Notes under the pieces: model-generated | What the model saw: the letters and a program-made list of their open reading frames with translations, nothing else | Databases searched by the model: none | Told to the model about the DNA's origin: nothing | Translations under genes and position numbers: made by a program | Source of the DNA: a virus | Lineage: Duplodnaviria > Caudoviricetes | DNA: 64,000 nucleotides | IMG/VR virus record: IMGVR_UViG_3300036987_000420 | Coordinates: 9,577-73,576 of that record | Strand: one strand, 5' to 3' | Shown here: piece by piece, positions 3,419 through 55,286 of the stretch | Layout of the letters: the number at the start of each line of letters is the position of its first letter | How positions within the stretch are numbered: position 1 is the first letter of the stretch

Positions 3419-3903
3419 CCTCCGTCATCCTCGGCAGCCGGCGCGCCGGTCGCGTTCGTGCGGGGCGCCGCGGGGGCCGAGGCCGGCCGACTCGGCGGCG
3501 GTCCGTATCCGCCACCGTAGCCGCCGCGGTCGTCGTCCTGCGGCGGCGGCGGGTCGTCCCGGCGCCGGCCGGCGCCCGGCGTGCCGCCCAGGAACTCGAC
3601 GTGCGACGCGACGACCTCGGTGGTCTGGTGTCGCTGGCCGTCCTTCTCCCACTCGCGCGTCTGCAGCTTGCCCTCGACGTAGACCTGCCGGCCCTTCGCG
3701 AGGTGCTCCTTACAGACCTCGGCGAGCCGCCCCCAGGCGATGACGCGGTGCCACTCGGTGCGCTCCTGGCGCTTGCCGTCGCGGTCCGTCCACACCTCGT
3801 TGGTGGCGACGCGGAGGTTCGCCACGGGCTGGTTGCTGGCGGTGTACCGGATCTCCGGGTCCGCGCCGAGATTGCCGATGAGGATGACCTTGTTGATGCC
3901 CAT
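3412..3903 (-). CDS. ssb: Single-stranded DNA-binding protein
   Basis: [21 protein letters not shown]...TEWHRV...[12 protein letters not shown]; acidic C-tail. Confidence 0.97.
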
Positions 3904-6368
3904 CAGGCCGCCTCGCCTTCCCCGGCCGCAGCCGCCGTCTCGGCCTGCGCCGCGAGCGCCGCGCGGACGCGCTTCTTCTTCGCGGTGTCGGCGGCGACCA
4001 TCGCCGTCGACTCGCGCTTCGCGGCCTCGCGGACCTCGGCGCCGCACTGGCAGCCGCGCGCCCGGTGGGCGTCGACGCGGATGCGCTGCCCGTCGCAGAA
4101 GACGTAGTCGGTGGGCTCCAGGCCGCCGGCCTCCGGCGGGTCCGGCACGACGGCGCCGGCCTCGTCGACCACGGCGGCCGGCGAATGCTGGTGCGCGTCG
4201 CAGACGAACACGGCAGGCGTCCGCGGGCTGTCGCGGTGCGCCTGGACGATGGCGACGCCGCTGCCGGCGAGCTTGTGCGCCAGGTCCGGCACGACGACGC
4301 CGGCGATGCCCTCGGCGACGTCGACCCGCATCGCGCAGAGCACGGCGGACAGTCGGCCGGCGCGCTGCTCCTCGGCGAGCACGCGCACCAGGCGGATGGC
4401 GCGGTCGGTCTCGAGCGCCTCGAGCCGGTCGATGACGACGGCGCGGAAGGGTGCTACGCTCGGATCTCCCTGCGACTGAAGGGATTGAGACGCGTACATC
4501 AGCGCGACGCCGCAGACGATCTGCTCGCTGTCGCTGAGCGCGGAGTAGGGGCGCCAGGCGTCCGACCCCTCCGGCCCGCCGGCGTCGAAGGTGACGAGAC
4601 CGAAGCCCCAGGCAGCGGGCTCGTCGCCGTTCGCGGGCAGCGGCCGGAACGCGAAGCCGCGCGCCAGCGGGTCGCCGCCGTACACCGGCCGGACGATCCG
4701 GTCGGCGTGCGCGGTCACGGCGGCCGCCGATCGCCGCGCCAGCTCGACGCCGAACGCGCCGAGCGCGCGCTCCAGGGCCCCCCAGGTCGCCCGCGCCAGG
4801 ATGGCCGCGTCGAGGTCGGCCTCGTTCGCGGCCCGCAGGCGCTCGGCCTCCTCGAAACCGGCGAGCCGGGCGACCTGGTCGGACACGGCGGTCAGATCCG
4901 CCTCGCGCTTGTCGCGCGCCCCCTCCAGGTCGCCGACACCCTCGAGCGGCGGCAGGGCGGCGAGCGCCTGCTCCGCGGCGACGAGCTCCGAGCGGGCGGA
5001 CGCGACGACCGCGGCGGCCTCGGACCGGGCGCGCTCCCCGGACGCGGCGCGCTGGGCGGCGGCGTGCGCGGCGCGCAGCGCGTCGGTGGCGCTGCGCTCG
5101 GCGTTCTCGGCCTCGCTGGCGGCGGCGTAGGCGTCGTCGGCCGCCCGCCGCGCGGCGTCGCCCCGCACCCCGAGCACCGCCTCCCGGCGCGCCAGTCCGG
5201 TGCGCTTCTCCTGGATGGCGGAGCGCGCGGCGTCGAGCGCGCCGCCGGTCGTGCCGCAGGTCGGACAGTGCCCGTCGGCGAGCGCGACGAGCGTCTGGTC
5301 GATGCGCGACAGGTCGCCACGCACGTCCCGCAGCTTCGCCTCGACCTCGGCCGCGGCGTTGTGCGCGGCGACCGCCGCCGCGCCGAGCTCCTTGCGGCGC
5401 GCGGTGGCGGCGTCGGCCGTCGCCTGGGCCTGCGCGACGGCGCCGGGGGCCGCCTCGGCTGGCGCCTGGGCGGCCGCGCCGGGCCGCTGCTCCGCCGCGG
5501 TGACCCGCTGCCGCGCCGTCTCGACGCGCGCCGCGGCCCGCTGGCGCTCGGCCTGCGCCTGGGCACGGGCGGCGAGCTTCTCGCGGACGGCGGTCAGCTC
5601 CTCGCGGACGCGGCGCTCCCGCGCCTGGGCGTCGGCCAGCGTCCCGGGCGGCAGGTCGTCGCGGCGCAGGTCGACCAGCCGGCCGCGGGCCTTCTCGGCC
5701 TCGGCCTTGCGCCTCTGCCACTCGTTCTTCTGGACGCGCGCGTGCTCCTTCGCGCCCTCCAGTCCGTCGGCGGCGAGCGCCTCGGCCACGGCGGCGAGCT
5801 GCGCCGCGTCCGGGCGGCCCTGGCGCGGCTGCCCGCGGGCGTCGTCGTACTCCACCTCGGTCCGGCGCAGGCGGTCGTCGAGGTCGGCGCGGATGGCCGG
5901 GTCGGCGAGCGTCACGCCGGCGACCTTCGCTACCAGCGCGGCCTGCTTCTCGGTCGTGAGGCTGATGAAGTCGGCGAGGTCGGTCGGCTGCATCCGCTGC
6001 GCGCCGAGGTGCGCGGCGAGACCCGCCTCGACCCCCTTCGCGTCCTTCACGAGCGGCTCGTCGCCGATGCTGAGGCGCGCCTCGTGCTTGGCGCCCAGGA
6101 TGCGGGTGAGGCGCAGCGGCCGGCCGTCGCTGGTCTCGCCCTCGACGCCGAGCTCGACGCGGCCGCAGTCCGCCGCGATGTCGCCGAGCTGCGCCGGGGT
6201 GGCGCTGCCACCGATGCGGGTGCCGAGGGCGAGATGGCAGGCGAGCAGGCGGGCCGACTTGCCGCTGCCGTTCGGGCCGACGACCAGCGTCGGGCGGGTG
6301 AGGTCGAGCACGAAGCGGCGGCCCTTGACGCCGTCGCCGTCGGCGATGATGGTGCGGATGGTGGTCAT
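3903..6368 (-). CDS. Rad50/SbcC-like SMC ATPase with zinc hook
   Basis: Walker A GPNGSGKS, long coiled coil with CPTCG hook, LSDSE signature-like motif, VVID Walker B, extra Cys/His C-tail. Confidence 0.85.
4468..4491 (-). repeat. CRISPR-repeat-like 24-nt hairpin, copy C (inside the Rad50-like CDS)
   Basis: Minus strand GTCTCAATCCCT-TCAGTCGC-AGGG; same architecture as copies at 31039 and 34755. Confidence 0.7.
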
Positions 6369-9417: not shown

Positions 9418-9699
9418 CCAGACCACGAACAGCACCCGCCGCAGCCGAACCACCCGCCCGGTCGCCCGGCCCGCGTAGCGCAGAGACATGGCCCTCCCCT
9501 CCTCCGTCCTGGTTGCCACAGAGCGACCCGTGCCCGCCCTCTCCGCTCCCCCGCACCGTCGGTCGCGCGCTGGGTCATGGCCCGGCCGGCGGGGTCGGGC
9601 TCACGCGCCGGAACGCGCTCACCCGGTGGTCCGCGGCCGACGACGGCTGCGGTCGCCAGCGCGCTGCGGGGCTGTCAGAGATCGCCGAGCACGAGGGGG

Positions 9700-13144: not shown

Positions 13145-13271
13145 CGAGTGGCTCCTGCGCAACGCTCGTGTCGAACGTTCTGCGTGATTCTCGGTGCGTT
13201 GCTGCCGAGCATGCCAGGGAGCGCCGTGGACTTCACGCAGGATCGCAGCCGCCGGCTGCATGGAGCACAGC

Positions 13272-13811
13272 ATGCAGCCTGACGCCTCGCTGCCCGTGCT
13301 GCGCGAACTGCGCGGTCTCATCGACGATGCGCGACTCCGCGCCTGGTTGGAAGACGAGTTCGGGATCGACTCGGGTGGCGCGAGTCGCATCCTGCGCGCG
13401 GAGCGCGACGACGGGCAGGCGACACGTCCGACCGTCGGCCTCCTCGAGGCCGTGCTGCAACGGGCACTGGAAGACCGGGATGCGAACGGCCGGCGCTCCC
13501 GGATCGAGGCGTTGTTGTCGGCCCTGGTCGGCGGCCGGGCCGTCCGCCTTGCCACCGCCGGCCCAGCGGTGCCGCTCTCCGTCACGCCCACGCAGGTCCT
13601 CGACGCCGCGGCGGCGGGTGCCATGCCGCTCGCGACGGTCATCGACCGCGTGCGCCGGGCCGTCGCCGACGGCCGCATCGACACCAGCGAGCTGCGCGAC
13701 ATCCGGCAGGCAGCGGCGGCGCTCAAGGCCGCCGTCTGCCTCGTCGAGCAGACGGCCGAGGCCGCTGCACGGCAGGCCGGGCGCGAATCCAATCATCTGC
13801 GGAGGAGGTGA
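13272..13811 (+). CDS. CII-like phage regulatory protein
   Basis: Position after cro; C-terminal AVADGRIDTSELRDIRQA pattern typical of 186/P2 CII-like proteins. Confidence 0.55.
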   Translation: MQPDASLPVLRELRGLIDDARLRAWLEDEFGIDSGGASRILRAERDDGQATRPTVGLLEAVLQRALEDRDANGRRSRIEALLSALVGGRAVRLATAGPAVPLSVTPTQVLDAAAAGAMPLATVIDRVRRAVADGRIDTSELRDIRQAAAALKAAVCLVEQTAEAAARQAGRESNHLRRR

Positions 13812-25376: not shown

Positions 25377-26849
25377 GTGGCACGCGACGCTGGCGCCGAG
25401 GTCCGCGACGTCCTGCGGCGACAGCGGGCCCAGCTCGACGGGCTGACCGAGGACGCGCAGCGGAAGATTGCCGCGCTCCTCGAGGACACGCAGCGCGACC
25501 TCGAGCGCGAGCTGCGGCGCTACCAGGACAGCGCCCCGGACAGCTTCACGGCGCAGGACTACCGCGTCGCGATGGCGCGGGTCCGGACGATCGCGCAGGG
25601 CCTGGAGGACCGGCTGGCCGTGCGCGAGGCGGGGCCGGGCGGCAAGGGCCTGCTCGTCGACTTCGGAGAGCGTGCCCGAGGCCTCGGGCTCGACCACCTC
25701 GAGGAGCAGATCACGCGCTTCTCGGCGGTCTTCGAGGGCACGACGCGGCCGGTGAACCTGCGGGCCGTGGCCCGCACGCTCGACGAGGTGCTGCTCGAGC
25801 GCTTCGAGACGAGCGTCCGGAGCTACGGCTTCGACGGCGTGAAGGCGATCCAGCGCGAGCTCGCTCAGGCGCAGCTCGCGGGGCGCTTCCCGCGGCAGCA
25901 CGCCGACCGCGTGATGGAGGTCACGGGCTTCGGCGAGCGCGAGCGCTGGAAGGCGGACCGCATCGTCCGGACCGAGCTGGCGCACAGCTACTCGGCGGCG
26001 CACCTCGAGGGGCTGCGGGCGGCGAACGAGGCCGACCCGGGCTACCGGAAGAAGCTCGTCGCGACCCGCGACGACCGGGTCGGGTCCGACAGCATCTTCG
26101 TCGACGGCCAGGTGCGGGAACTCGACGAGCCCTTCGAGGACAACGAGGGCCGCGTCTACCAGCACCCGCCGAACCGCCCGAACGACCGCGAGGTCGAGGT
26201 GGCGACCCGGGCGGAGTGGGAGGACGAAGCGTCCGGCAGCGAGGCCGGCGAGGGAACGCTCGTCAAGGACGAGGACCCGGCCGGAACCGCAGCGGTGTAC
26301 GGCGACGCCCGCGAGAACCACCGCGAAGCGTTCGAGGCGGCGAAGAGCTACGCGGAGCGCGTCGGGGCCGGGTTCGATGTTGATGGCGCGCCGGGCACCG
26401 GGGAGTACGTCACGCCGTTCAGCCGCGGCAAGGCTCCGGCATCCGGCGGCATCCGGGTGGGAGACCCACCCGACATCTCGACCGTGGCGCACGAGACGGT
26501 CCACCTGCGATTCTTTGAGCGGGAGGGCTTCCCGAAGTACCACGACTTCCGCCGGGGGGCGACGACCGAGGCCCGTATCGAATCCGCGCGGCGCCTGCTA
26601 TTGAACGACGCAGAGGCCTATCGTGCCGAGCTCGTGCTGGCCGACCGGCTGCTGGCGGATCAGGCAGAGCTCGCGGAGACGAAGCGCCGCATCCTGCAGC
26701 TCGGCGAGCGGCGGATGCGCGAGGTGGCGGTCCAGCTCAAGCTGGATGCGCAGCACGTCGACGAGGCCGTCGCCGTGCTGCGGGGCGATGGCGAGCCTGT
26801 CGACCGTCTTGCCGAGGATGTGATTGAGATGCTCCTCGGAAGGCAGTAA
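25377..26849 (+). CDS. MuF/SPP1 gp7-like head morphogenesis protein with C-terminal HExxH metallopeptidase-like domain
   Basis: RIVRTELAHSY, RDDRV, HPPNRPNDR MuF core; extension with VAHETVHLR and NDAEAY. Confidence 0.85.
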   Translation: MARDAGAEVRDVLRRQRAQLDGLTEDAQRKIAALLEDTQRDLERELRRYQDSAPDSFTAQDYRVAMARVRTIAQGLEDRLAVREAGPGGKGLLVDFGERARGLGLDHLEEQITRFSAVFEGTTRPVNLRAVARTLDEVLLERFETSVRSYGFDGVKAIQRELAQAQLAGRFPRQHADRVMEVTGFGERERWKADRIVRTELAHSYSAAHLEGLRAANEADPGYRKKLVATRDDRVGSDSIFVDGQVRELDEPFEDNEGRVYQHPPNRPNDREVEVATRAEWEDEASGSEAGEGTLVKDEDPAGTAAVYGDARENHREAFEAAKSYAERVGAGFDVDGAPGTGEYVTPFSRGKAPASGGIRVGDPPDISTVAHETVHLRFFEREGFPKYHDFRRGATTEARIESARRLLLNDAEAYRAELVLADRLLADQAELAETKRRILQLGERRMREVAVQLKLDAQHVDEAVAVLRGDGEPVDRLAEDVIEMLLGRQ

Positions 26850-30788: not shown

Positions 30789-31022
30789 GTGCCGTACCCC
30801 GACTACACGACCACCGAGTGCGACGAGGCGATCGTCGCCATCGACGCCGAGATCGCCCGCCTGCGACCGCTGGCGGACGCCTACTCGCTGGGCGGGGGCC
30901 GGCACTTCGCGCAGGGCCAGAAGGTCCAGCGGCTCCAGGCCGAGCGCTCCGAGTGGGTGGCGCGCAAGCTCGCTGCCGAGGGCTCCGGCGCGCCGCTCCA
31001 GTTCGAGTGCGAGCTGACGTGA
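30789..31022 (+). CDS. gpW-like head-tail joining protein
   Basis: 77 aa helix-beta-helix: AIVAIDAEIA...YSLGGGRHF...VQRLQAERSEW. Confidence 0.6.
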   Translation: MPYPDYTTTECDEAIVAIDAEIARLRPLADAYSLGGGRHFAQGQKVQRLQAERSEWVARKLAAEGSGAPLQFECELT

Positions 31023-31024
31023 TC

Positions 31025-31062
31025 GTCTCAATCCCCTTGTCTCAATCCCCTCACGGGCGGGG
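31025..31062 (+). repeat. CRISPR-repeat-like hairpin copy A with tandem 14-nt partial copy
   Basis: GTCTCAATCCCCTT + GTCTCAATCCCC-TCACGGGC-GGGG. Confidence 0.75.
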
Positions 31063-31075
31063 TCCGCAGCGTACC

Positions 31076-31471
31076 ATGATCGACGCCGACGCCTACGCCG
31101 AGCAGGTGGCGATCCACCTCGCGGAGATCCTTCCCGAGGAGCCGAACGCGATCCGCGTGCGCCTGGCGGGCGGCACGCGCAACATCGTCGGCGAGCTCGT
31201 CGGCGCGACCGAGACGCGCCTCGACCTGCGGGTCGACATCCGCCCCTACCGGCGCGCCGAGCGTGGCGCGGCCGGCGAGGCGGAGCGCGGCGACACAGCC
31301 ATCGCGCTCCTGGAGGACGCGCTCGAACCCGGCGACCTGGTCGAGGCCGAGGGGCACCGCTACCGCGTCATCGCGGTGCAGCCCCGCTACCTCGCCGGGC
31401 GCGTCCACTGCTACGACGCGACGGCGGAGCGCCTCGACGTCGAGCGCGGCTCGCCGGTCGTGGACGGGTAG
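31076..31471 (+). CDS. Head-tail adaptor/stopper
   Basis: LEPGDLVEAEGHRYRVIAV motif; position. Confidence 0.7.
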   Translation: MIDADAYAEQVAIHLAEILPEEPNAIRVRLAGGTRNIVGELVGATETRLDLRVDIRPYRRAERGAAGEAERGDTAIALLEDALEPGDLVEAEGHRYRVIAVQPRYLAGRVHCYDATAERLDVERGSPVVDG

Positions 31472-31492
31472 CGCCGCCGGGAAGGCTCCGCC

Positions 31493-32047
31493 GTGCCGAG
31501 CTTCGTCCACAAGGTCACCGCCCAGCAGCGCGCCGAGCAGCTCCGGCAGCACGTGCCGAACGTCATCGCCGCCCAGCGCCGGGCGCTGTGGCGGGCGGCC
31601 GAGAAGCACCGCGGCGAGGCCGCCGGGGCGACGCCGGTCGACCAGGGCACGATGCGCCGCGCCTGGGACGTCCACGACGAACCGAACGCCGTCGTGCTCG
31701 AGAACGACGCGCCGCACGCGGCCATCGTCGAGCTCGGCCGCCGCCCCGGGAAGTGGCCCCCGGGGCAGTACAACCACCAGGCCCTGATGTGCTGGGGCGG
31801 TCCGATCTACGACTGGGTCTGGCGCAAGACCCGCGTCTCGATCCAGGCCGAGCTCGGCCGCGGGAAGCGAGCGACCGGCCAGCGGCGCCTGCGGGTCGCC
31901 CGGCTGGCGTACCTCATCGCGCGGGCCATCGCGATGCGCGGCATCGAGCCGCAGTTCATCGTCGAGCTGCGCCTCATCCCATGGGCGCAGGACGTGCTCC
32001 GGGAGATGGAGCGCGCCTACGCCGAGCTGCTCGGCCGCAGGAGATGA
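31493..32047 (+). CDS. HK97 gp10-like neck protein
   Basis: TPVDQGTMRRAW...NDAPHAAIVELGRRPG. Confidence 0.8.
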   Translation: MPSFVHKVTAQQRAEQLRQHVPNVIAAQRRALWRAAEKHRGEAAGATPVDQGTMRRAWDVHDEPNAVVLENDAPHAAIVELGRRPGKWPPGQYNHQALMCWGGPIYDWVWRKTRVSIQAELGRGKRATGQRRLRVARLAYLIARAIAMRGIEPQFIVELRLIPWAQDVLREMERAYAELLGRRR

Positions 32048-32050
32048 GCC

Positions 32051-32659
32051 GTGGCTGCGACCGACCACCTCTGGGATCACGTGGCCGGCGCGCTCGTCAC
32101 GGGCCTGCGGACCGCGCTCGGACTCGCGGCGGACCGCTGCCACGTCGGCTGGCCGGCGCCCGGGCAGGGCCCCGAGGCCGGCCCGTTGCCGGCGCTGTCG
32201 GTGACGCTCGCCTCCGCCCAGGTCGCGCTGCGGCGCGCCATCCGCGTGGCGAGCGTCGAGGGTGCCGTCCCGGCCGAGGCTGTGGCGACGTACCAGATCG
32301 GCCAGGGGACGGCGACGCTCCAGGTCGACCTGTGGGCGCCCAGCAAGACGGCGCGCCTGGCGCTCGCCGGGGCGGTTCGTGACTACCTGGTCGGTCGGCC
32401 GTCGACGGGGCTGACCGGCCGCATCCTGACGCTCGACCGGCTCTCCGAGCGAGCGCGCTACACGGCCGGCCAGACGACCTACGACGACGACGACGGGGCC
32501 GGGCCGCGGGCCCTGCTGCCCGTCTCCGTCCGGGTCCCGTACCTCGTCCGCGAGACGCTGGCGCGGGCGCAGAAGCTCGTCATCGAGTCGCAGCGTCCGG
32601 CTGGCTCGCCGCCGCTTCCGGGCCTCGGTCCGGAGACGCGGATCATTTTCGCGCCCTGA
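32051..32659 (+). CDS. Tail terminator/completion protein
   Basis: Position before sheath; LQVDLWAPSK motif. Confidence 0.65.
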   Translation: MAATDHLWDHVAGALVTGLRTALGLAADRCHVGWPAPGQGPEAGPLPALSVTLASAQVALRRAIRVASVEGAVPAEAVATYQIGQGTATLQVDLWAPSKTARLALAGAVRDYLVGRPSTGLTGRILTLDRLSERARYTAGQTTYDDDDGAGPRALLPVSVRVPYLVRETLARAQKLVIESQRPAGSPPLPGLGPETRIIFAP

Positions 32660-32699
32660 ACACGCACCGAGGCCCGGAGACGGGCCGCCGGAGGGGACC

Positions 32700-34229
32700 A
32701 TGTCCGAGCCCTACTACAGCAACAACCCCCTCGACTGGACGGCCCTCGACGGGCTCTACATCGACAAGCAGGACCCGCCGCTGCCGCTCACCGCGGGCGG
32801 GGCCGGCGTGGTCGGGTGCGTCGCCGAGCTGCCGTGGGGTCCGGTCGACACGCCGATCCTGATCGGCGCTCCGATCGCGCTCGTGCGCGCCTTCTTCGGC
32901 TACGACACCGACCCCGACTACTACTACGGCGACGGCGGCAGCAAGACCGGCTACAAGGGCTGCATCGGCCTCGCGAAGAAGCGGTGGAGCTCGCGCGGCA
33001 TCTACATCGTGCGCGTCGGCCACTCCGGCCAGGCGGGGGCCGAGAAGAACCTGATGGACGGCGCGACGCCGGCCAAGATCGCGCTCACCATCAAGGCGAA
33101 ATATCCGGGCAAGCTGGGCGACCGCATCCAGTACAAGGTGACCAACAACACGTCGAGCTTCGACCTGGAGGTCCGCTGGGGCGACCGCGCCGAGACCTAC
33201 GTGGGCCTGACGCTCACCACCATGGTCGAGCGCGTCGGCGGCAACTCCGATCTGGTCGTCGTCGCGGCGGGCGAGTCCGGCGCAGCGCTGCCGGTCACGG
33301 TCTCCTCGTGGACGAACCTGGCGGGCGGCTCCGACGGCACGCCGGCCGCGTCCGACTACGCGGGCAGCGACGTGTCGAAGGTCGGATTCCGCACGTTCGC
33401 CGACTACCCCGACGTCGAGCTGATGTTCGCGGCGGAGTTCGAGTCGGACACCCTCGACGCCGCCATGGACGCCTGGCTCCTCGAGCGTGGCTACGGGGTC
33501 TTCTTCGCCGGCTGCGCCATCGGCGACGCGCTCGCCGACGCGAAAGCGAAGCGCGCCGCGCTCATCGCCGCGTCGGATGGCTCGCGGACCCGCATCTGCT
33601 GGCCGGGCCTGCGGGTCACGATGCCGAACGACCGCGTCGTCGACACGATGTCGAGCGGCTGGCAGTGCGCCGCGGCGGCCCAGATCAGCCCGCACCGCGA
33701 CATCGCCGCGGCCGGCACGAAGAGCGCCTACACCGGCTGCATCGCGCTGGAGGACGGCGTCCAGATCACGCGGGCCGACTACATCGACGCGTTGAACCAC
33801 GGCATCGGCGCGATGGAGCAGCTGTCGTCGGGCGGCTTCAAGGCCCGCAGCGGCATCGTCGCGGACTCCGACGGCAGGCTGCTCCTCCAGGTCCGCATGG
33901 CCGACCTCATCCACCGCGCCGAGGCGAAGCGGCTGGAGAGCTACCAGAACGAGCCGATGGACGCGGAGTGGAAGGAGGGGGTCCGGGCGGCCATCTCCGA
34001 CTACCTGAAGTACCTGCAGGACCCGCCGCGCAAGATGCTCAAGGCGTTCAGCGTCGACGACACGTCGCTGAACACGGAGTCCTCCGAGGCGGCCGGCGAG
34101 TGGTACGTCGTGCAGAAGGTCCAGCTCTACCCGCCCGGCCGCTTCATCGTCGTGCGGTCGATGATCGGCACCACGGTCGTCATCACGACCGAGACGTCGG
34201 GCGGGGGCGGGGGCGGCATCTCCGTCTGA
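32700..34229 (+). CDS. Tail sheath protein
   Basis: GVVGCVAELPWGPVDTP, AKYPGKLGDRI, LAGGSDG motifs. Confidence 0.92.
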   Translation: MSEPYYSNNPLDWTALDGLYIDKQDPPLPLTAGGAGVVGCVAELPWGPVDTPILIGAPIALVRAFFGYDTDPDYYYGDGGSKTGYKGCIGLAKKRWSSRGIYIVRVGHSGQAGAEKNLMDGATPAKIALTIKAKYPGKLGDRIQYKVTNNTSSFDLEVRWGDRAETYVGLTLTTMVERVGGNSDLVVVAAGESGAALPVTVSSWTNLAGGSDGTPAASDYAGSDVSKVGFRTFADYPDVELMFAAEFESDTLDAAMDAWLLERGYGVFFAGCAIGDALADAKAKRAALIAASDGSRTRICWPGLRVTMPNDRVVDTMSSGWQCAAAAQISPHRDIAAAGTKSAYTGCIALEDGVQITRADYIDALNHGIGAMEQLSSGGFKARSGIVADSDGRLLLQVRMADLIHRAEAKRLESYQNEPMDAEWKEGVRAAISDYLKYLQDPPRKMLKAFSVDDTSLNTESSEAAGEWYVVQKVQLYPPGRFIVVRSMIGTTVVITTETSGGGGGGISV

Positions 34230-34326
34230 CCGACAGCCCGAGCGCATCGATCGTCCCTGACACGCCGGGAGCGCGGCCTCGTGTCGCGCCACCCCGCAGA
34301 CCACGCAGCAGCACCGGAGGGCTCCG

Positions 34327-34752
34327 ATGGCCGAGGATGTCGTCCTCAGCAGCGACGTGCAGATCCGCGTCTTCAAGGCCGGCGTCCCGATCGGCGCCAT
34401 CGACGCGACGGGCTTCTCCGTCAACCAGCAGGCCGAGGTGCGCACCCGCGCCCTGCTCGGCAGCCGCGAGAAGGACACGTACGTCGTCTACTCGGGGCAC
34501 AGCGGCACGGTGAGCGTCGAGCGGACGAACACCCGCGTCGATGACCTCATCGACAGCCTGGAGACGCAGTTCTTCGACGGCAAGCCGGTCGACGAGATCC
34601 AGATCGCGAAGACCGACGCGTACCCGGACGGCACGCGGCGGACCTACATCTACCAGCGCTGCCGCATCTGGGCGGACGACAGCGGCTCGGGCGACGCGGC
34701 CGCGACCATCACGCTGAACTGGCGCAACGGCAAGCCGCGCGTGAAGGCGTAG
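34327..34752 (+). CDS. Tail tube protein
   Basis: 141 aa beta-rich protein directly after sheath. Confidence 0.8.
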   Translation: MAEDVVLSSDVQIRVFKAGVPIGAIDATGFSVNQQAEVRTRALLGSREKDTYVVYSGHSGTVSVERTNTRVDDLIDSLETQFFDGKPVDEIQIAKTDAYPDGTRRTYIYQRCRIWADDSGSGDAAATITLNWRNGKPRVKA

Positions 34753-34754
34753 AC

Positions 34755-34778
34755 GTCTCAATCCCCTCATCGGCGGGG
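34755..34778 (+). repeat. CRISPR-repeat-like hairpin copy B
   Basis: GTCTCAATCCCC-TCATCGGC-GGGG, 22/24 identical to copy A. Confidence 0.75.
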
Positions 34779-34837
34779 AGCGCCGCCGCCCGGCCGCAGG
34801 GTAGACGACCACGCCAGGTCACGGGAAGCAGGACCCG

Positions 34838-46917: not shown

Positions 46918-47898
46918 ATGACCGCCACCGCCGGCCAGCCGCTGTCGCTCGCCAGTCCCCTTGAGCGCGTCATCGCTGCGGCGCTGGCCGCGCGCGTGGG
47001 ACGCATCGCACGGGAGGTGCGCTACCAGGCGACGCTCCCCGGCGCGACCATGCTCCCGCTGCGGCGAGGCATGTACGGGCAGGAGGTGCGGCGGCTCCAG
47101 CGCGCGCTCGGCATCCCCGAGGCGCTCGCGGACGGGAAGTTCGGACCGCAGACCGAGGCGGCCGTCCTCGCTCGCCAGGAGCGCCTGCGCGGCATCCCGA
47201 CGGGCGTGGCCGACGCCGTCGTGCAGAAGGCGCTCGGCACAGAGATCCTCCTGGGGGTCGACGTCTCGCACTGGCAGGGCACCGTCGACTGGCCGCGGCT
47301 GCGTGCGAAGGGCGTCCGGTGGGCGGCGCTCAAGGCGTCGCAGCGGGGCACGGCGCGCCACTTCCGGACGAACCTGGAGGGCGCCCGGTCCGCCACGATG
47401 GCCACGACGGCCTACCACTTCGCGGACACGAACGAGACGCCGGGGTGGAACCGCGCGCAGCTCATGACCGCGTGCGGGCTTAACTACGACCTCGACCTGC
47501 CGCCCGTGCTCGACCTGGAGGACCGGAAGTTCAAGGACCCGCCGCGGCTCGTGCGCTGGGCGCTGGCGACGGGTCGGGAGTTCGCGGACGCGACTGGGCG
47601 CCGGCCCATCCTCTACTCGTCGTACTCGTTCCTCTGCGACCACCTGGCGGGCTCGAGGAACCCGGCGCGCTGGTCGGCGGAGTTCCGCAGCCTGCCCGAC
47701 CTCTTCCACCTCTGGATCGTCCGCTACAACGGAAAGCCCGACCCGGGCGATCTGGGCCCGTTCACGGAGTGGATCCTGTGGCAGTGGTCGAACCGTGGCG
47801 TCCAGGCAGCCGGACTGACGGGCTGCGTCGAGTCGAAGGGCCTGGACGTCAACTGGATGGCCGGCGGGCAGCTCCGCCGGCTCATGGGCCGGGACTGA
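46918..47898 (+). CDS. Endolysin: PG-binding domain plus GH25 muramidase
   Basis: LQRALG...DGKFGPQTEAAV; GVDVSHWQG, AYHF, PVLDLE, LWQWS. Confidence 0.93.
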   Translation: MTATAGQPLSLASPLERVIAAALAARVGRIAREVRYQATLPGATMLPLRRGMYGQEVRRLQRALGIPEALADGKFGPQTEAAVLARQERLRGIPTGVADAVVQKALGTEILLGVDVSHWQGTVDWPRLRAKGVRWAALKASQRGTARHFRTNLEGARSATMATTAYHFADTNETPGWNRAQLMTACGLNYDLDLPPVLDLEDRKFKDPPRLVRWALATGREFADATGRRPILYSSYSFLCDHLAGSRNPARWSAEFRSLPDLFHLWIVRYNGKPDPGDLGPFTEWILWQWSNRGVQAAGLTGCVESKGLDVNWMAGGQLRRLMGRD

Positions 47899-49769: not shown

Positions 49770-49890
49770 TTCGGACGCGGGCGCGGGTGATGCCGTAGCG
49801 CTCAGCTAGCGCGGCGCGGTTCTCGACGCGGCCCGTGTCGAGGAGGTCCTGGAACTCGTGCGCGCGGGCGAGGGCGTCGGCGAGGCCGGA
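49770..49890 (-). pseudogene. Fragment of recombinase-associated HTH protein (copy 1)
   Basis: Manual translation LARAHEFQDLLDTGRVENRAALAERYGITRARV. Confidence 0.6.
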
Positions 49891-49911
49891 GGGGCGGCCG
49901 CGGCGGGACGG

Positions 49912-50110
49912 CGGCCTGGTCGAGGAAGTCGCCGCGGGCCAGTTTCTGGAGCTGCCGGGCCAGGGGCCGTGGCAACCGGTCGTCCGCGAACGTCGCGAAG
50001 GTCTTCGCCGGCGGGAGCTGCGAGGCGCGCCTCAGCCGCTGCACGCGGCGCTCCCCGCGGTCGTCCCGCTCGCTCTCCAACACTTCGAGCACGACGGGGA
50101 GCGCGTCCTC
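49912..50110 (-). pseudogene. istB: IS21 IstB N-terminal fragment
   Basis: ERRVQRLRRASQLPPAKTFATF...LARGDFL; no Walker A. Confidence 0.75.
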
Positions 50111-50639
50111 CTGGCCGGCGTCGATCAGGCGGCGGACCGTCTCGGCCGCCGCCGTCGGGTGGTGGTCCAGGCAGCCCGCGATGAGGCCGAGGAGCTGGCG
50201 CACGTCGCGCTGGTTCACGCGGTGCTTGTCGTCGGCCGAGGCGCCACGCGCGCAGGCGCCGCAGGCGCCGCAGGCGCAGGCGCAGGCGCCGCTGCGGGTG
50301 TGGGTGCGGGTGCAGATCGTCGTTGTGTGGTCCTTCTTCATGCTGCGCCTCCGTCCGTTCTGCCTTTGGTTTCAGTGCGTTGTCGCCCTGGATGTGCCTT
50401 CACATAGCCATCGCCCGCGGACGACTTCAAGGGCTTCATGCGAGAAAACCGAAGAAGATTAAGTGGTTGAGGTGATTTCAGCGCGGTCTCCTCGACCGGC
50501 GGGCGGGAACCCGCACGTGAGGGCCGCCTGCGCCTGGACTCCGCCGGGCGCGTGGGGTAAGGACCAGCGCGCCTCGTCGGCACCCGGCGTGCGTGAGCCG
50601 CACGACGTCGGCCGCCGCCCCACCCCCCAGGAGTGCGAC

Positions 50640-51206
50640 ATGGCCTTCAGGCAGTTCGTCGAGGAGGAGGTCCACCGGCGTGAGGCTGCATTGGTCTCCA
50701 AGACCTTGCGGGCGGCGCTGCGAGAGGCGGTGCCCCCGACCGCCACCGTTGGCGACGTCCTTGCCATGGCGCAGGAGGACGAGCGGCTCTGGGCTGCGTT
50801 CGAGGCGTTGACGATCGACGACCTGCGGCGGCTGTTCGGACGTCCCGGGAGCGGGGCTGGCGCGCGGCGGGCCCGGGCGCCGCATGAGGACTCCTCGCCG
50901 CAGCAGGCCGCGATGCCCCAGGAGCCCGCGGTGGCGGGAGCTGTTCCCGAGGTCATCGCACCGAGCCAGTCCGTCGAAGAGGACGTGCCCGCGGAGGTGA
51001 ACGGGCGAGGCCCCCTCATCCGCCGTCGTGTGGATGGCGAACGCGTCCTCGCGTACGTCCGCGCCCGCCCCGGTTGCACGTTCGACGACGTCGTGAAGGC
51101 CATCGGTGACCCGGATACGGCGGCCCTGCAGATCCGGGTGCTGCGCCGACGGGGCGCACTGCGGGTCTTCGCGGTGCGGGGGACGGAGCTGTACTACGTG
51201 ACGTGA
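50640..51206 (+). CDS. Putative DNA-binding protein with C-terminal wHTH
   Basis: VLAYVRARPGCTFDDVVKAIG...LRRRGAL; AGGAG RBS. Confidence 0.6.
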   Translation: MAFRQFVEEEVHRREAALVSKTLRAALREAVPPTATVGDVLAMAQEDERLWAAFEALTIDDLRRLFGRPGSGAGARRARAPHEDSSPQQAAMPQEPAVAGAVPEVIAPSQSVEEDVPAEVNGRGPLIRRRVDGERVLAYVRARPGCTFDDVVKAIGDPDTAALQIRVLRRRGALRVFAVRGTELYYVT

Positions 51207-51386
51207 TGCGGCGCGGCTGGATGCCGCCCCCGTCATCGCCCCAGCATCACGATCCCCGTGCCCGCGAGGCACGCGGCAAGTAGTTCCATGAGCAGCACCG
51301 CCAGCGCGCCCGACCACGTGCTGCGGCCCACCCGCGTCCCGCCTATCGTCCTGGCGCGTGCCATCCCGGTCTCCACTTTCTCATCG

Positions 51387-52434
51387 TCAGAACAGGCTCC
51401 GCCGGCCGGGATCCCAGACGCTGCCCGGCATCCCGGCCCAGGCGCTCCCTCGCGGCGCGACCGTCCGGGACCGCCCGACGCGCGTGACCCGGGCCGGGGC
51501 GCTGCCGCCCGTGCCCTTCGTCGCGGCCGCCGCCGGCGTCGCGGCGGACGGGGCGGGCTTCGGACGCCCCTCCAGCCGCACGCCCATGGCGAGCAGCGAC
51601 TTCAGCGCCGCCATCGCGTACACGCGGCAGTCGAGGGCCTCGTTGCGGCGGTTGTCGGGCTTCCACCAGAAGTAGACCGGGCGGCCGTCCTTGTGGCGGG
51701 TGCGGAGCTTCTCCGCGGTCAGCTGGAAGAAGTAGACCTCGTCGTTGTGTGGCTTCGAGAAGTGGCAGTAGCCCGGGCCGGGCCGGTCGATGAGCAGGCG
51801 CGCGAACAGCAGCTCCTTCGCCGTGTCGGTGCCGACGGCGTAGACGTCGTACTTGCCCCTCATCGGCTTGCCGGGCCGAACCGACCAGACCGGGTGGGGG
51901 CGAGTGCTGGGTGTTGATCGTGCCCTTCACCGCCCAGATGCGGCGGGCGGCCAGCTCGGCGGCGAGGCGGTCCGGGATCGCCATCATGCGTTTGCGGACG
52001 CCCTGGGCCAGCTCGAACCAGCGCCGCTCCACCTCGGCGGTCCGCGCGAAGGCGCCGGTGCGCGACTCGTAGTCGAGCTGGCGGAGCTTCGCCTTGAAGA
52101 GGGCGTCGGCGGTCTTGGCCTGGGCGTAGGTGCCGGCGGCCGGGGCGGGCGAGCCTGCGGTTCCGACGCCGGCACCGGCGTGTCCCACCGCCGGCGGGGC
52201 GCCGGCCGTGATGCGCTTCCCGGCCATCTCCGGCCCGGGCGGGGAGGCCGTGGCCGTCCACTCCCGGTCCGCGACCACCGGGTCGATCGTGCCCTTGTTG
52301 CCTCTGATTATCACTACCGCCAGAACCTCTGGACGGGGTCGATCGGTCCTGCTCGACACCCTGGTGGCCCCGATCCCGACCTCGCTGCGCGCCTGCCGAC
52401 GCCGGGCCCCGTCGCTGTCGAGCTGCCACGTCAT
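51387..52434 (-). pseudogene. Deleted lambda-type terminase locus (Nu1-like fused to gpA C-terminus)
   Basis: KAKLRQLDYESRTG...IPDRLAAELAA joined directly to RRIWAVKG, frameshift, then VGTDTAKE...QLTAE...RNEALDCRVYA. Confidence 0.8.
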
Positions 52435-52647: not shown

Positions 52648-54682
52648 GTGCGTCCTGACGACAACGGCCAGCAGCTCGAATTGCCCTTCGGCGGCCGGCC
52701 AGGGTCACGCTGCGTCGGTTCAACGGGTGAGAGTCCCGTCCCGGTAGGCGCCGGAGCGCCGGGTAGCAAGCCCCAGGCGTCGGAGGAGACTCCGGCGGCC
52801 CGAGCGGGGCGTCGAAAGCCTCTTCGGAGGGAGCAAGCGCGCGGGCCGCAACATCAAGTGAACGCTGCAGCCTCGACAGATGAACAATGGGAGGGCCGAG
52901 CCGCTCATGTCACGGCGAAGGCGATCCCCGACGAGCCGATTCCGGAGCGCTCGCCGGGTCTCCCCGGGGTACGGGCGGCGGCACGTGCGCAAGGACCGAC
53001 GCGGAACAGGAGAGGCCCGTCTGCGCAGCCCGAGTCGGGGCAAGGCGCCTCGTATAAGCCGAGTGCGAAATCGAGCGCCGCGCAGCGGGAGTCCGAGGGG
53101 GTCGTAGTACTGCTGACCCCGGCGCAGCAGAACGCCGGGCGAGGGAAGGACCCCTACGGTGATCGTGCCGGAAGCGGGGCCACGTGCGAGGGCATGGCCG
53201 GGCAACAGAGCCGGTCCAACTCCCCCATCGGTCCATCGACCGACGAGAAAGCACGCCACCTCCAACGCCGGCTGTGGGCCGCGGCCAAGCGGTCCCCGGG
53301 GCGCCGCTTCCACGCCCTGTACGACCGCATCCACAGGGATGACGTCCTGTGGATGGCGTGGGAGCGGGTCAAGGCGAATCGTGGTGCGGCCGGCGTCGAT
53401 CGCGAGACGGTGGCCGACATCGAGCAGCTTGGGGTGGGGGGCATCCTTCGGGAGCTCCAGACCGAGCTGCAGGCGGGAACGTACCGACCGCTGGCGGTCC
53501 GGCGGCAGTACATCCCGAAGGCCAGCGGCAAGCTGCGGCCGCTGGGCATCCCGGCGGTGCGCGACCGGATCGTACAGGCGGCGACGAAGATCGTGCTGGA
53601 GCCGATCTTCGAGGCGGACTTCCTGCCGTGCTCGCACGGCTTCCGCCCACGCCGAAACGCGACGGGCGCGCTGGAGACCCTGCGGAAGCGGGCGTACCGC
53701 GATGATGCGGGGAACTTCTTGCTGGACGCGGACATCCGCGGGTACTTCGACAGCATCGACCACTCGAAGCTGCTGGAACTCGTGGGTCGGCGGGTCAGTG
53801 ACCGTCGGGTGCTCAAGTTGCTGCGGCAGTGGCTCCGGGCAGGGGTGATGGAGGAGGGCAGCGTGACCCGCAGCCTGGCGGGCACTCCGCAGGGCGGAGT
53901 GATCTCGCCGCTGCTGGCCAACATCTACCTGCACGTCCTCGACCAGCGGTGGACGGCCGAGCATGCCCAGTTGGGCACACTCGTGCGGTACGCCGACGAC
54001 TTCGTCGTCATGTGCGACACGGCGGAGGCCTGCGAGGAGGCCGAGCGGGTCATCCGGGGCGTCCTGGAAGACGAGCTCGGGCTGGAGCTGCACCCGGAGA
54101 AGACGAGGCGGGTCGAGCTGACCGGAGGCACGGAAGGCTTCGACTTCCTCGGCTGCCACCTGCACAAGCGGATGAGCGGACCACTCTGGGCGAAATACCG
54201 GCGGCGCCGGTACTACCTCCAGCGATGGCCCTCGACGACCGCGATGAAGCGGGTACGCACACGCGTGAAGGAGCTGACCGACAAGCGCTGGAACGGGATC
54301 ACGGACCTGCGCCAGATCATCGCGCGGGTCAATCCTGTCCTGCGAGGTTGGGGCAACTACTTCCGGACCGGGAACGCCGCCAAGAAGTTCAACCAGCTCG
54401 ACACCTACGTCTACCGCCGGTTCCACCGCTTCCTCGTTCGGCGGAAGGGACGGAACCTGAAGGCCGGCGAGGCTGACCGCTGGACGCGGGACTTCTTCTG
54501 GGGCCTCGGACTGCACCGTCTGCGAGGAACCGTCCGCTACCCGGAGGCTGCGTAATGCGACGACCCGAGAGATCACCCGTGAGCCGTGTGCGGGAAAACC
54601 GCACGCACGGTTCGAAAGGGGGCCGTACCGCCACGACAGCCGGCGAGGCATCGTCGGCGTCGGTCAGGTAAGGTCTACCAAT
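52648..54682 (+). mobile_element. Group II intron (5' end 52647 or 52648)
   Basis: GTGCG 5' end, RT ORF, domain V GAGCCGTGTGCGGGAAAACCGCACGCACGGTTC (54581-54613), DVI ending CTACCAAT. Confidence 0.93.
53194..54555 (+). CDS. ltrA: Group II intron reverse transcriptase/maturase (no endonuclease domain)
   Basis: GAAGVD, IPKASGKLRPLGIP, PQGGVISPLLANIYL, RYADD, FDFLG, domain X LRGWGNYF. Confidence 0.97.
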   Translation: MAGQQSRSNSPIGPSTDEKARHLQRRLWAAAKRSPGRRFHALYDRIHRDDVLWMAWERVKANRGAAGVDRETVADIEQLGVGGILRELQTELQAGTYRPLAVRRQYIPKASGKLRPLGIPAVRDRIVQAATKIVLEPIFEADFLPCSHGFRPRRNATGALETLRKRAYRDDAGNFLLDADIRGYFDSIDHSKLLELVGRRVSDRRVLKLLRQWLRAGVMEEGSVTRSLAGTPQGGVISPLLANIYLHVLDQRWTAEHAQLGTLVRYADDFVVMCDTAEACEEAERVIRGVLEDELGLELHPEKTRRVELTGGTEGFDFLGCHLHKRMSGPLWAKYRRRRYYLQRWPSTTAMKRVRTRVKELTDKRWNGITDLRQIIARVNPVLRGWGNYFRTGNAAKKFNQLDTYVYRRFHRFLVRRKGRNLKAGEADRWTRDFFWGLGLHRLRGTVRYPEAA

Positions 54683-55286
54683 GGGGCGACGGACCACAGA
54701 GCAGGTAGCCCGGGTCATTCGCGCGCACGGCGGCACGCTACGCACGTCCGAGGCCGAGCGGCTGGGCGTTCGCCGGCAGGCCCTCTACCGGCTGCGGGAC
54801 CTCGGGCTCGTCGTGCCGGTGAGCCGGGGCGTCTACCGCCTCGCCGACCTGCCAGACCTGTCGGAGCCCGACCTCGTGGCCGTGGCCACACGCATCCCGC
54901 GGGCCGTCGTCTGCCTCGTGTCGGCCCTGGCCCTCCACGAGATCACGAACGAGATCCCGCACGAGGTCCACGTCGCGCTGCCGCGGGACGTGAAGACGCC
55001 CCGGCTCGACTACCCGCCCCTGCGTGTCTTCCACTTCTCCGGCGCCGCGCTGACCGAGGGCGTCGAGACGCGAGAGATCGACGGCGTGGCGGTGCGCGTC
55101 TACGGCCCGGAGAAGTCCGTGGCCGACGCCTTCCGCTTCCGGAACCAGCTCGGGCTCGACCTCGCGATCGAGGCGCTGAAGCTGTGCCTGGAGCGGAAGC
55201 GGGCGTCCCGGGCGACGCTTCTGCACTTCGCCCGCATCTGCCGCGTGAACAAGGTGATGTTGCCGTACCTGGAGGCGCTGCAGTGA
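54681..55286 (+). CDS. abiEi: Type IV TA antitoxin AbiEi
   Basis: N-terminal wHTH (VSRGVYRL), VCLVSALALHEIT, PEKSVADAF. Confidence 0.9.
   Translation: MGRRTTEQVARVIRAHGGTLRTSEAERLGVRRQALYRLRDLGLVVPVSRGVYRLADLPDLSEPDLVAVATRIPRAVVCLVSALALHEITNEIPHEVHVALPRDVKTPRLDYPPLRVFHFSGAALTEGVETREIDGVAVRVYGPEKSVADAFRFRNQLGLDLAIEALKLCLERKRASRATLLHFARICRVNKVMLPYLEALQ

Follow-up and report, generated by a model that had tools for sequence, protein, structure and literature searches.

Why does a phage without cas genes carry several lone copies of a short motif that looks like part of a CRISPR repeat, and what might they do for it? The question is raised by a stretch of 64,000 nucleotides (nt), here called the window, from a 73.6-kb virus record of IMG/VR (IMGVR_UViG_3300036987_000420, positions 9,577 to 73,576; Caudoviricetes) with a GC (guanine plus cytosine) content of 73%. 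A sequence-only reading of the window had picked out a 24-nt hairpin motif at three places and connected it to host Cas6. A motif search recovered all three copies where they had been placed, at 31039-31062 (plus strand), 34755-34778 (plus strand) and 4468-4491 (minus strand), the cores of what we call units A, B and C respectively, and copies A and B are identical at 22 of 24 positions as had been reported. The window holds no further match with three or fewer mismatches (shuffled sequences give 0.01 expected), and the first 12 nt of the motif recur a fourth time at 31025-31036.

Compared with arrays from other genomes, the motif reads as the reverse complement of the 3' end of a family of 36-37-nt CRISPR repeats of the Cas6 type. 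This 3' end has a 4-bp C/G stem and an 8-nt loop followed by an 8-nt handle, ATTGAGAC or ATTAAGAC (two strict-match arrays, 37-nt repeat). A scan with the strict 24-nt pattern, covering one genome per species for 185,579 species, returned only two contigs, both of them genuine CRISPR arrays in metagenome-assembled genomes (MAGs) of Myxococcota. One is a Nannocystaceae MAG array of more than 30 repeats at 69-76-nt spacing, and the other, in a Bradymonadales MAG (L002), has three repeats at 75-76-nt spacing. A looser pattern added a 4-repeat array in G098, a 10-Mb Nannocystales genome with 74% GC locally, and a 13-repeat array at 13152-13702 of the virus contig L036 (IMGVR_UViG_3300029258_003803). 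Within IMG/VR the strict motif had no match outside the record of this phage, and a scan of metagenomes gave three single matches (L018, L019 and L020). Those in L019 and L020 lie at contig ends and are probably array edges, one of them on a 73%-GC contig with a core one base different from that of unit B; the match in L018 lies inside an open reading frame (ORF) and was set aside as probably due to chance. A search of papers with an 11-mer gave unrelated primers only. When phage units and array repeats are aligned in repeat orientation, 17 of the 24 core positions are invariant, with the phage core identical or close to identical to the repeats of five arrays, and among the genomes searched the family was found only in Myxococcota arrays and in the one virus-borne array.

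Repeats of 36-37 nt that are processed by Cas6 and end in ATTGAAAC-type handles belong to types I-A/B/D and III, for example the type III system of Thermus thermophilus. The family described here resembles them in its length, in the small C/G hairpin right before the 8-nt handle and in its variable 5' part, and differs in the 8-nt loop and the ATTGAGAC handle, which mark a subfamily.

The sequence-only reading had held that a 5' single strand and the hairpin were conserved and the 3' tag was not. We find instead that what was taken for this single strand complements the 8-nt handle and that the similarity exceeds 24 nt, with a 5' part common to units A, B and C. The phage units are thus full-length repeats: A measures 36 nt, C 38 nt and B about 50 nt. 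Their layout is as follows.

31039-31074, repeat-sense on the minus strand: unit A, a full 36-nt solitary repeat whose 3' 24 nt align with array repeats of L001, L002, G098, L019 and L020.
31025-31038, minus strand: partial copy, 12 nt of stem and handle and then 2 nt, abutting unit A and starting 2 nt after the TGA stop at 31020-31022.
34755-34804, repeat-sense on the minus strand: unit B, about 50 nt with about 15 extra nt between the 5' part and the hairpin, starting 2 nt past the tail-tube stop.
4454-4491, repeat-sense on the plus strand: unit C, 38 nt, read in frame on the minus strand inside a Rad50/SbcC-like gene.

The two distances given earlier, 2 nt from the tail-tube stop to copy B and 2 nt from the stop of a 77-aa gene to the partial copy, are both correct, and units A and B are intergenic, in very short gaps. 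The generalisation that all copies follow shortly after a stop fails for unit C, which is not intergenic and lies in frame within an 821-aa ORF. The units are solitary: they match a known repeat family, no other full repeat stands closer than about 100 bp, and the element has no cas genes. The only neighbour is the 12-nt partial copy beside unit A, 2 nt away, and nowhere in the phage does a spacer separate two repeats. In agreement with the earlier reading, no cas genes were found on the phage and no array, taken as two or more repeats with a spacer of about 30-40 nt, nor were Cas6 or RAMP genes found in the whole virus record. Units A, B and C have diverged from one another. They share a 5' part that occurs in none of the sampled arrays, and they stem from one unsampled sub-family of the repeat, or from each other.

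The orientation of the units relative to the phage genes follows from the arrays. When L002 is read with the handle last, its first repeat has upstream of it an AT-rich leader and, divergently oriented, an AEP-primase/cas1 operon, so handle-last is the transcribed orientation. Because the repeat ends in the handle ATTGAGAC in real arrays, the sense strand of the phage is the reverse complement of the repeat, and in all cases the repeat, read in its own sense, runs against the phage genes. The earlier remark that many repeats begin with the motif reflects repeats listed in reverse; arrays end in the handle. The copies do always lie on the coding strand of the local genes, as had been noted: of the four GTCTCAAT sites, three are on the plus strand and one is on the minus strand, each of them on the coding strand, and related 8-mers tested for comparison have zero occurrences. 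In the phage messenger RNA (mRNA) the order is GUCUCAAU, the complemented hairpin and then the complement of the 5' part of the repeat; the sense mRNA of unit A, for instance, is the complement of the repeat and begins GUCUCAAU. In every phage mRNA copy GUCUCAAU is the exact complement of the 8-nt 5' tag, or handle, ATTGAGAC of the CRISPR RNA (crRNA). Hence, of the CRISPR link drawn earlier, family membership and the occurrence of solitary units at several sites of a cas-free phage stand, whereas the orientation and the mechanism built on it find no support.

Units A, B and C are indicated to be insertions specific to this lineage by their surroundings. In the ATPase, unit C has the LSDSE signature on one side and the VVID Walker B motif on the other, and its codons are unusually A/T-ending. 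Two homologues, P0007 and P0008 (66% and 46% identity), carry 7 residues (MQQLGAR or MLLLGRR) in place of the 13 found here, with flanks that align perfectly. Unit C is thus a replacement specific to this lineage, which added 18 nt net. At units A and B, duplicated words stand on both sides.

31020-31025 and 31077-31082: TGATCG flanking the unit A block, a 6-bp duplication whose second copy supplies the ATG of the next gene.
34749-34755 and 34801-34807: GTAGACG flanking unit B, a 7-bp duplication whose second copy overlaps the unit's own GTAG end.

Taking out the unit A block restores a GTGA stop/start overlap, the present ATG being made of the insert's last base and the second TGATCG. A word recurs 35-60 nt downstream at 2.65% of window positions for 6-mers and at 1.0% for 7-mers, so that chance is an unlikely source of the flanking words at A and B, though the second word at B overlaps the unit end. 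Near-identical phage strains from other groundwater samples bridge both sites A and B without insertions or deletions, and no variant lacking unit A or B was found in the contigs of four groundwater or coal runs, the joints seen there being short-sided and perhaps noise. In run X1, one metagenome contig of a depth equal to that of the phage joins phage sequence up to 30865 to about 22 nt matching the start of unit B (34755). This joint could be the spacer-repeat junction of a host array targeting the mRNA of the 77-aa gene, or it could be alignment noise.

In type III systems, pairing of the 3' flank of a target with the crRNA tag signals 'self' and blocks Cas10 activation. Marraffini and Sontheimer reportedly showed in 2010 how tag and anti-tag distinguish self from non-self, with antisense transcripts of the array sparing the array, and the rule is reportedly described in bioRxiv 10.1101/369744 as well. 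The phage mRNAs hold the exact 8-nt complement of the tag, just as an antisense array transcript would, although here the anti-tag is in the mRNA of the invader and not in the host array. Type III systems are considered very hard to escape: mismatches are tolerated and no protospacer adjacent motif is needed. Escape by point mutation is hard or rare, the spacers that protect show a strong strand bias, and those escapers that are known carry in-frame deletions (PMC7515739).

We tentatively favour, while giving it less than even weight, a reading in which the units are repeats captured from host arrays and act as anti-tag 'self' marks against type III targeting. They would have been copied out of host arrays, beside sites targeted by host spacers. 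Recombination or repair starting in the homology between spacer and protospacer would bring in the upstream repeat, whose handle would then directly abut the former protospacer. The resulting mRNA would present the protospacer followed by a perfect anti-tag, would be read as an antisense array transcript and thus as self, and Cas10 activation would be withheld. Selection would enrich the mRNA-complementary orientation, including in essential sequence such as the ABC signature region and the ends of the tube and head-completion genes. That all units face one way relative to transcription would, on this proposal, be explained by the fact that only mRNA-complementary spacers protect in type III immunity. 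The anti-tag reading is favoured because it explains orientation, positions and the whole-repeat nature of the units together. The broader proposition, that phages escape type III immunity by copying a host repeat beside the targeted site so that a transcript with an anti-tag is treated as 'self', we hold to be possible and more doubtful. In a suggested variant, the solitary repeats would be mobile in their own right and would duplicate 6-7 bp of the target when they insert, by some mechanism. We know of no demonstration that an anti-tag protects a phage.

Is the repeat family one of a type III system? In G098, a type III-like locus on contig C22 (L025:11309-19899 and L026:774-1868) encodes a CHAT-SAVED effector, a short Cas10-palm protein, a RAMP-Cmr3 fusion, further RAMPs and Cas6, and has no adjacent array. 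The sole array with 36-nt repeats in this genome is on another contig, among kinase and TSP3-repeat genes; the Cas3-linked array of G098 is built of a different repeat, at a 61-nt period. The Nannocystaceae MAG G001 encodes Cmr2 and Cas6, and there too the array linked to Cas3 is of a different repeat. Since the Cas3-linked arrays of G098 and G001 use other repeats, the 36-37-nt family probably belongs, by elimination, with the Cas6/type III genes. Directly beside the family's array in the Bradymonadales MAG (L002:549-3580) come genes for a protein of 655 aa, which has an archaeo-eukaryotic primase domain (AEP-TOTE), and then for Cas1, a pair that looks like a primase-polymerase-associated adaptation module.

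Several observations weigh against the anti-tag reading. No cas10 stands next to an array of this family in the loci fetched, and no array was found that carries the 5' part shared by the units. No spacer matches the sequence beside any unit: the spacers of the fetched arrays match the phage over 14 nt at most, and a DNA search for spacers in 31 Nannocystales genomes gave noise only. The 6-7-bp duplications look more like the product of insertion at a staggered cut than of simple homologous recombination, and the reading does not explain them. Each unit would protect just one protospacer, and an 8-nt anti-tag would suffice, yet full repeats are present. Finally, three orientations agree by chance 1 time in 4.

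If the anti-tag reading is true, planting the array's own repeat beside a target in order to neutralise a spacer would be a new kind of counter-defence, and a natural escape route for essential genes that deletion cannot serve. Solitary repeats that, in some phages, are oriented the 'wrong way' for an RNA decoy would then have an explanation too.

It is also conceivable, if somewhat unlikely, that the units are functionless scars, left by repeats that came from host or virus-borne arrays through illegitimate recombination or another insertion process and were kept where they did no harm. Their positions are indeed tolerant ones, 2 nt after stops with the start codon regenerated or in an in-frame surface loop, and the units are mutually diverged. 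Viruses, moreover, carry arrays of this repeat family. Harder to square with neutral scars are the three independent insertions of the same 36-nt element, in one orientation, into a compact 73%-GC phage, and the retention of the units by near-identical strains in several samples. Virus-borne mini-CRISPR arrays are known (Medvedeva et al. 2019, PMC6858448). They too are repeats carried by viruses, and L036 bears a full array of the same family as the units; this phage, in contrast, has no spacer between repeats, unit A and the partial copy being 2 nt apart. Beside its 13-repeat array L036 has capsid and tail-collar genes, the same array is present on a second IMG/VR contig (L035/L037), and none of the L036 spacers matches this phage.

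Solitary repeat units (SRUs) and RNA anti-CRISPRs (Racrs) on phages have been described, some of them proven, and the decoy is transcribed in repeat-sense (Camara-Wilpert et al. 2023, PMC10651486). Applied to this phage, a small repeat-sense RNA made from the antisense strand would bind and divert host Cas6 or effector subunits, which we consider unlikely. Lone repeat copies on a phage with neither cas genes nor an array are the defining Racr feature (PMC10651486), and the hairpin and handle, presumed to be the part bound by Cas6, are conserved in both cases and form the best conserved part of the units. The units here, however, face against their operons, so that each would need its own promoter inside a late or early gene, expected within about 250 bp for a Racr, and no sigma-70-like site was found on either strand near the units, which is weak evidence as host promoters may differ. 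No RNA run is listed as containing this DNA. The Racrs that have been characterised either follow a promoter or share a transcript with acr genes, whereas one unit here is inside a coding frame and two are in very short gaps. Because three antisense promoters would be needed, none was detected and one unit is coding, the Racr explanation takes second place to the anti-tag reading.

Unlike the known SRUs and Racrs, this phage has three units plus a partial copy, all antisense to their operons and with no promoter detected; one unit is translated in frame and two are flanked by short duplications. To what is known of SRUs this case adds the presence of several units in one genome, their uniformly antisense placement, a copy in frame within a gene and duplications at the flanks. 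The SRUFinder filter calls for an intergenic location, and unit C would fall outside it. Surveys of SRUs should log the strand relative to transcription and keep the intragenic copies that current pipelines discard.

The sense transcripts necessarily hold 24-36 nt complementary to the repeat family, and one unit is in a replication/repair gene of early type. A trans-acting role of this RNA, in which the complement in phage mRNA would pair with the repeats of host pre-crRNA, in the manner of a tracrRNA anti-repeat, or with crRNA tags and block Cas6 processing or effector loading, nevertheless seems improbable. Effector complexes loaded before infection would be unaffected, and the 5' parts and loops of the units differ, so pairing with any single host repeat would be imperfect. 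We know of no precedent for a trans-acting anti-repeat RNA of this kind.

The proposal of the sequence-only reading, that host Cas6 binds or cuts sense-strand hairpins which serve as decoys or in mRNA processing, has very little left in its favour. With the orientation inverted, the basis for Cas6 binding of sense transcripts is removed: the mRNAs carry the anti-repeat, with the complement of the handle 5' of the hairpin and a complemented loop, which is not the Cas6 substrate of the arrays. The CCCC/GGGG stem does read the same on both strands, and units stand at gene boundaries. The hairpin, however, is weak, with a 4-bp stem, and RNA folds of the units and their flanks are no more stable than shuffled sequences (z-scores near 0). 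The compensatory stem change cited for it, C-G to T-A in copy C, is real, but it is a single double change among 8 aligned sequences and the covariation is not significant (111 of 500 shuffles reach it).

A reading unrelated to CRISPR would make the motif a site of phage regulation (nut/put-like, terminator or operator) or else a host repeat resembling a miniature inverted-repeat transposable element. It would suit the positions right after stop codons and the transposition-like flanking duplications, but it is largely refuted and has almost no chance of being right, given that elsewhere the exact motif is confined to the repeats of CRISPR arrays and that one copy is read as protein. An intrinsic terminator or nut/put-like RNA site was rejected on the 4-bp stem, the z-scores near 0 and the absence of a T-run.

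The genes around the units fall into two blocks. On the plus strand is a contractile-tail late operon with MuF-like, head closure, neck, sheath, tube and endolysin genes; on the minus strand is an early replication/repair block with a UvrD-like helicase and the Rad50/SbcC-like ATPase.

3903-6368, minus strand: Rad50/SbcC-like ATPase gene, 821 aa, with Walker A, a CPTC zinc hook, the LSDSE signature and the VVID Walker B motif; contains unit C.
30789-31022, plus strand: 77-aa late gene with a GC content of 0.96 at third codon positions and no family match; its stop precedes unit A.
31076-31471, plus strand: head-closure (Hc1-like) gene, phrog_161, downstream of unit A.
32700-34229, plus strand: tail sheath gene, which places the units inside the contractile-tail late operon.
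34327-34752, plus strand: tail tube-like gene, with its stop ahead of unit B; P0002, at 63% identity, shares its C-terminus.

Tail tube, tube alignment, sheath and P0004 each served as a query against viral and metagenome contigs, and none of them turned up a relative. The sheath gave zero tblastn matches among INPHARED phages and, in an atlas search, nothing about the host, and DNA and sheath searches of the 31 Nannocystales genomes gave no prophage relative.

Window positions 52721-54634 hold a group II intron, with Rfam matches to D1-D4 and to domain V/VI, and the gene directly downstream of it (54681-55286) encodes an AbiEi-type antitoxin. A link between the target site of this intron and the repeat motif was considered and dropped, as the exon junction bears no resemblance to the motif. 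To the right of the endolysin gene (46918-47898) the record is mosaic: window positions 49802-51863 hold an IstB-like fragment and a minus-strand fragment, 158 aa long, of the nuclease domain of a GpA-type terminase, and this region may be host DNA at the flank or what is left of a second element. The MuF-like minor head protein (25377-26849) has a long C-terminal extension past its MuF domain, the Pfam match covering residues 157-269 of 490.

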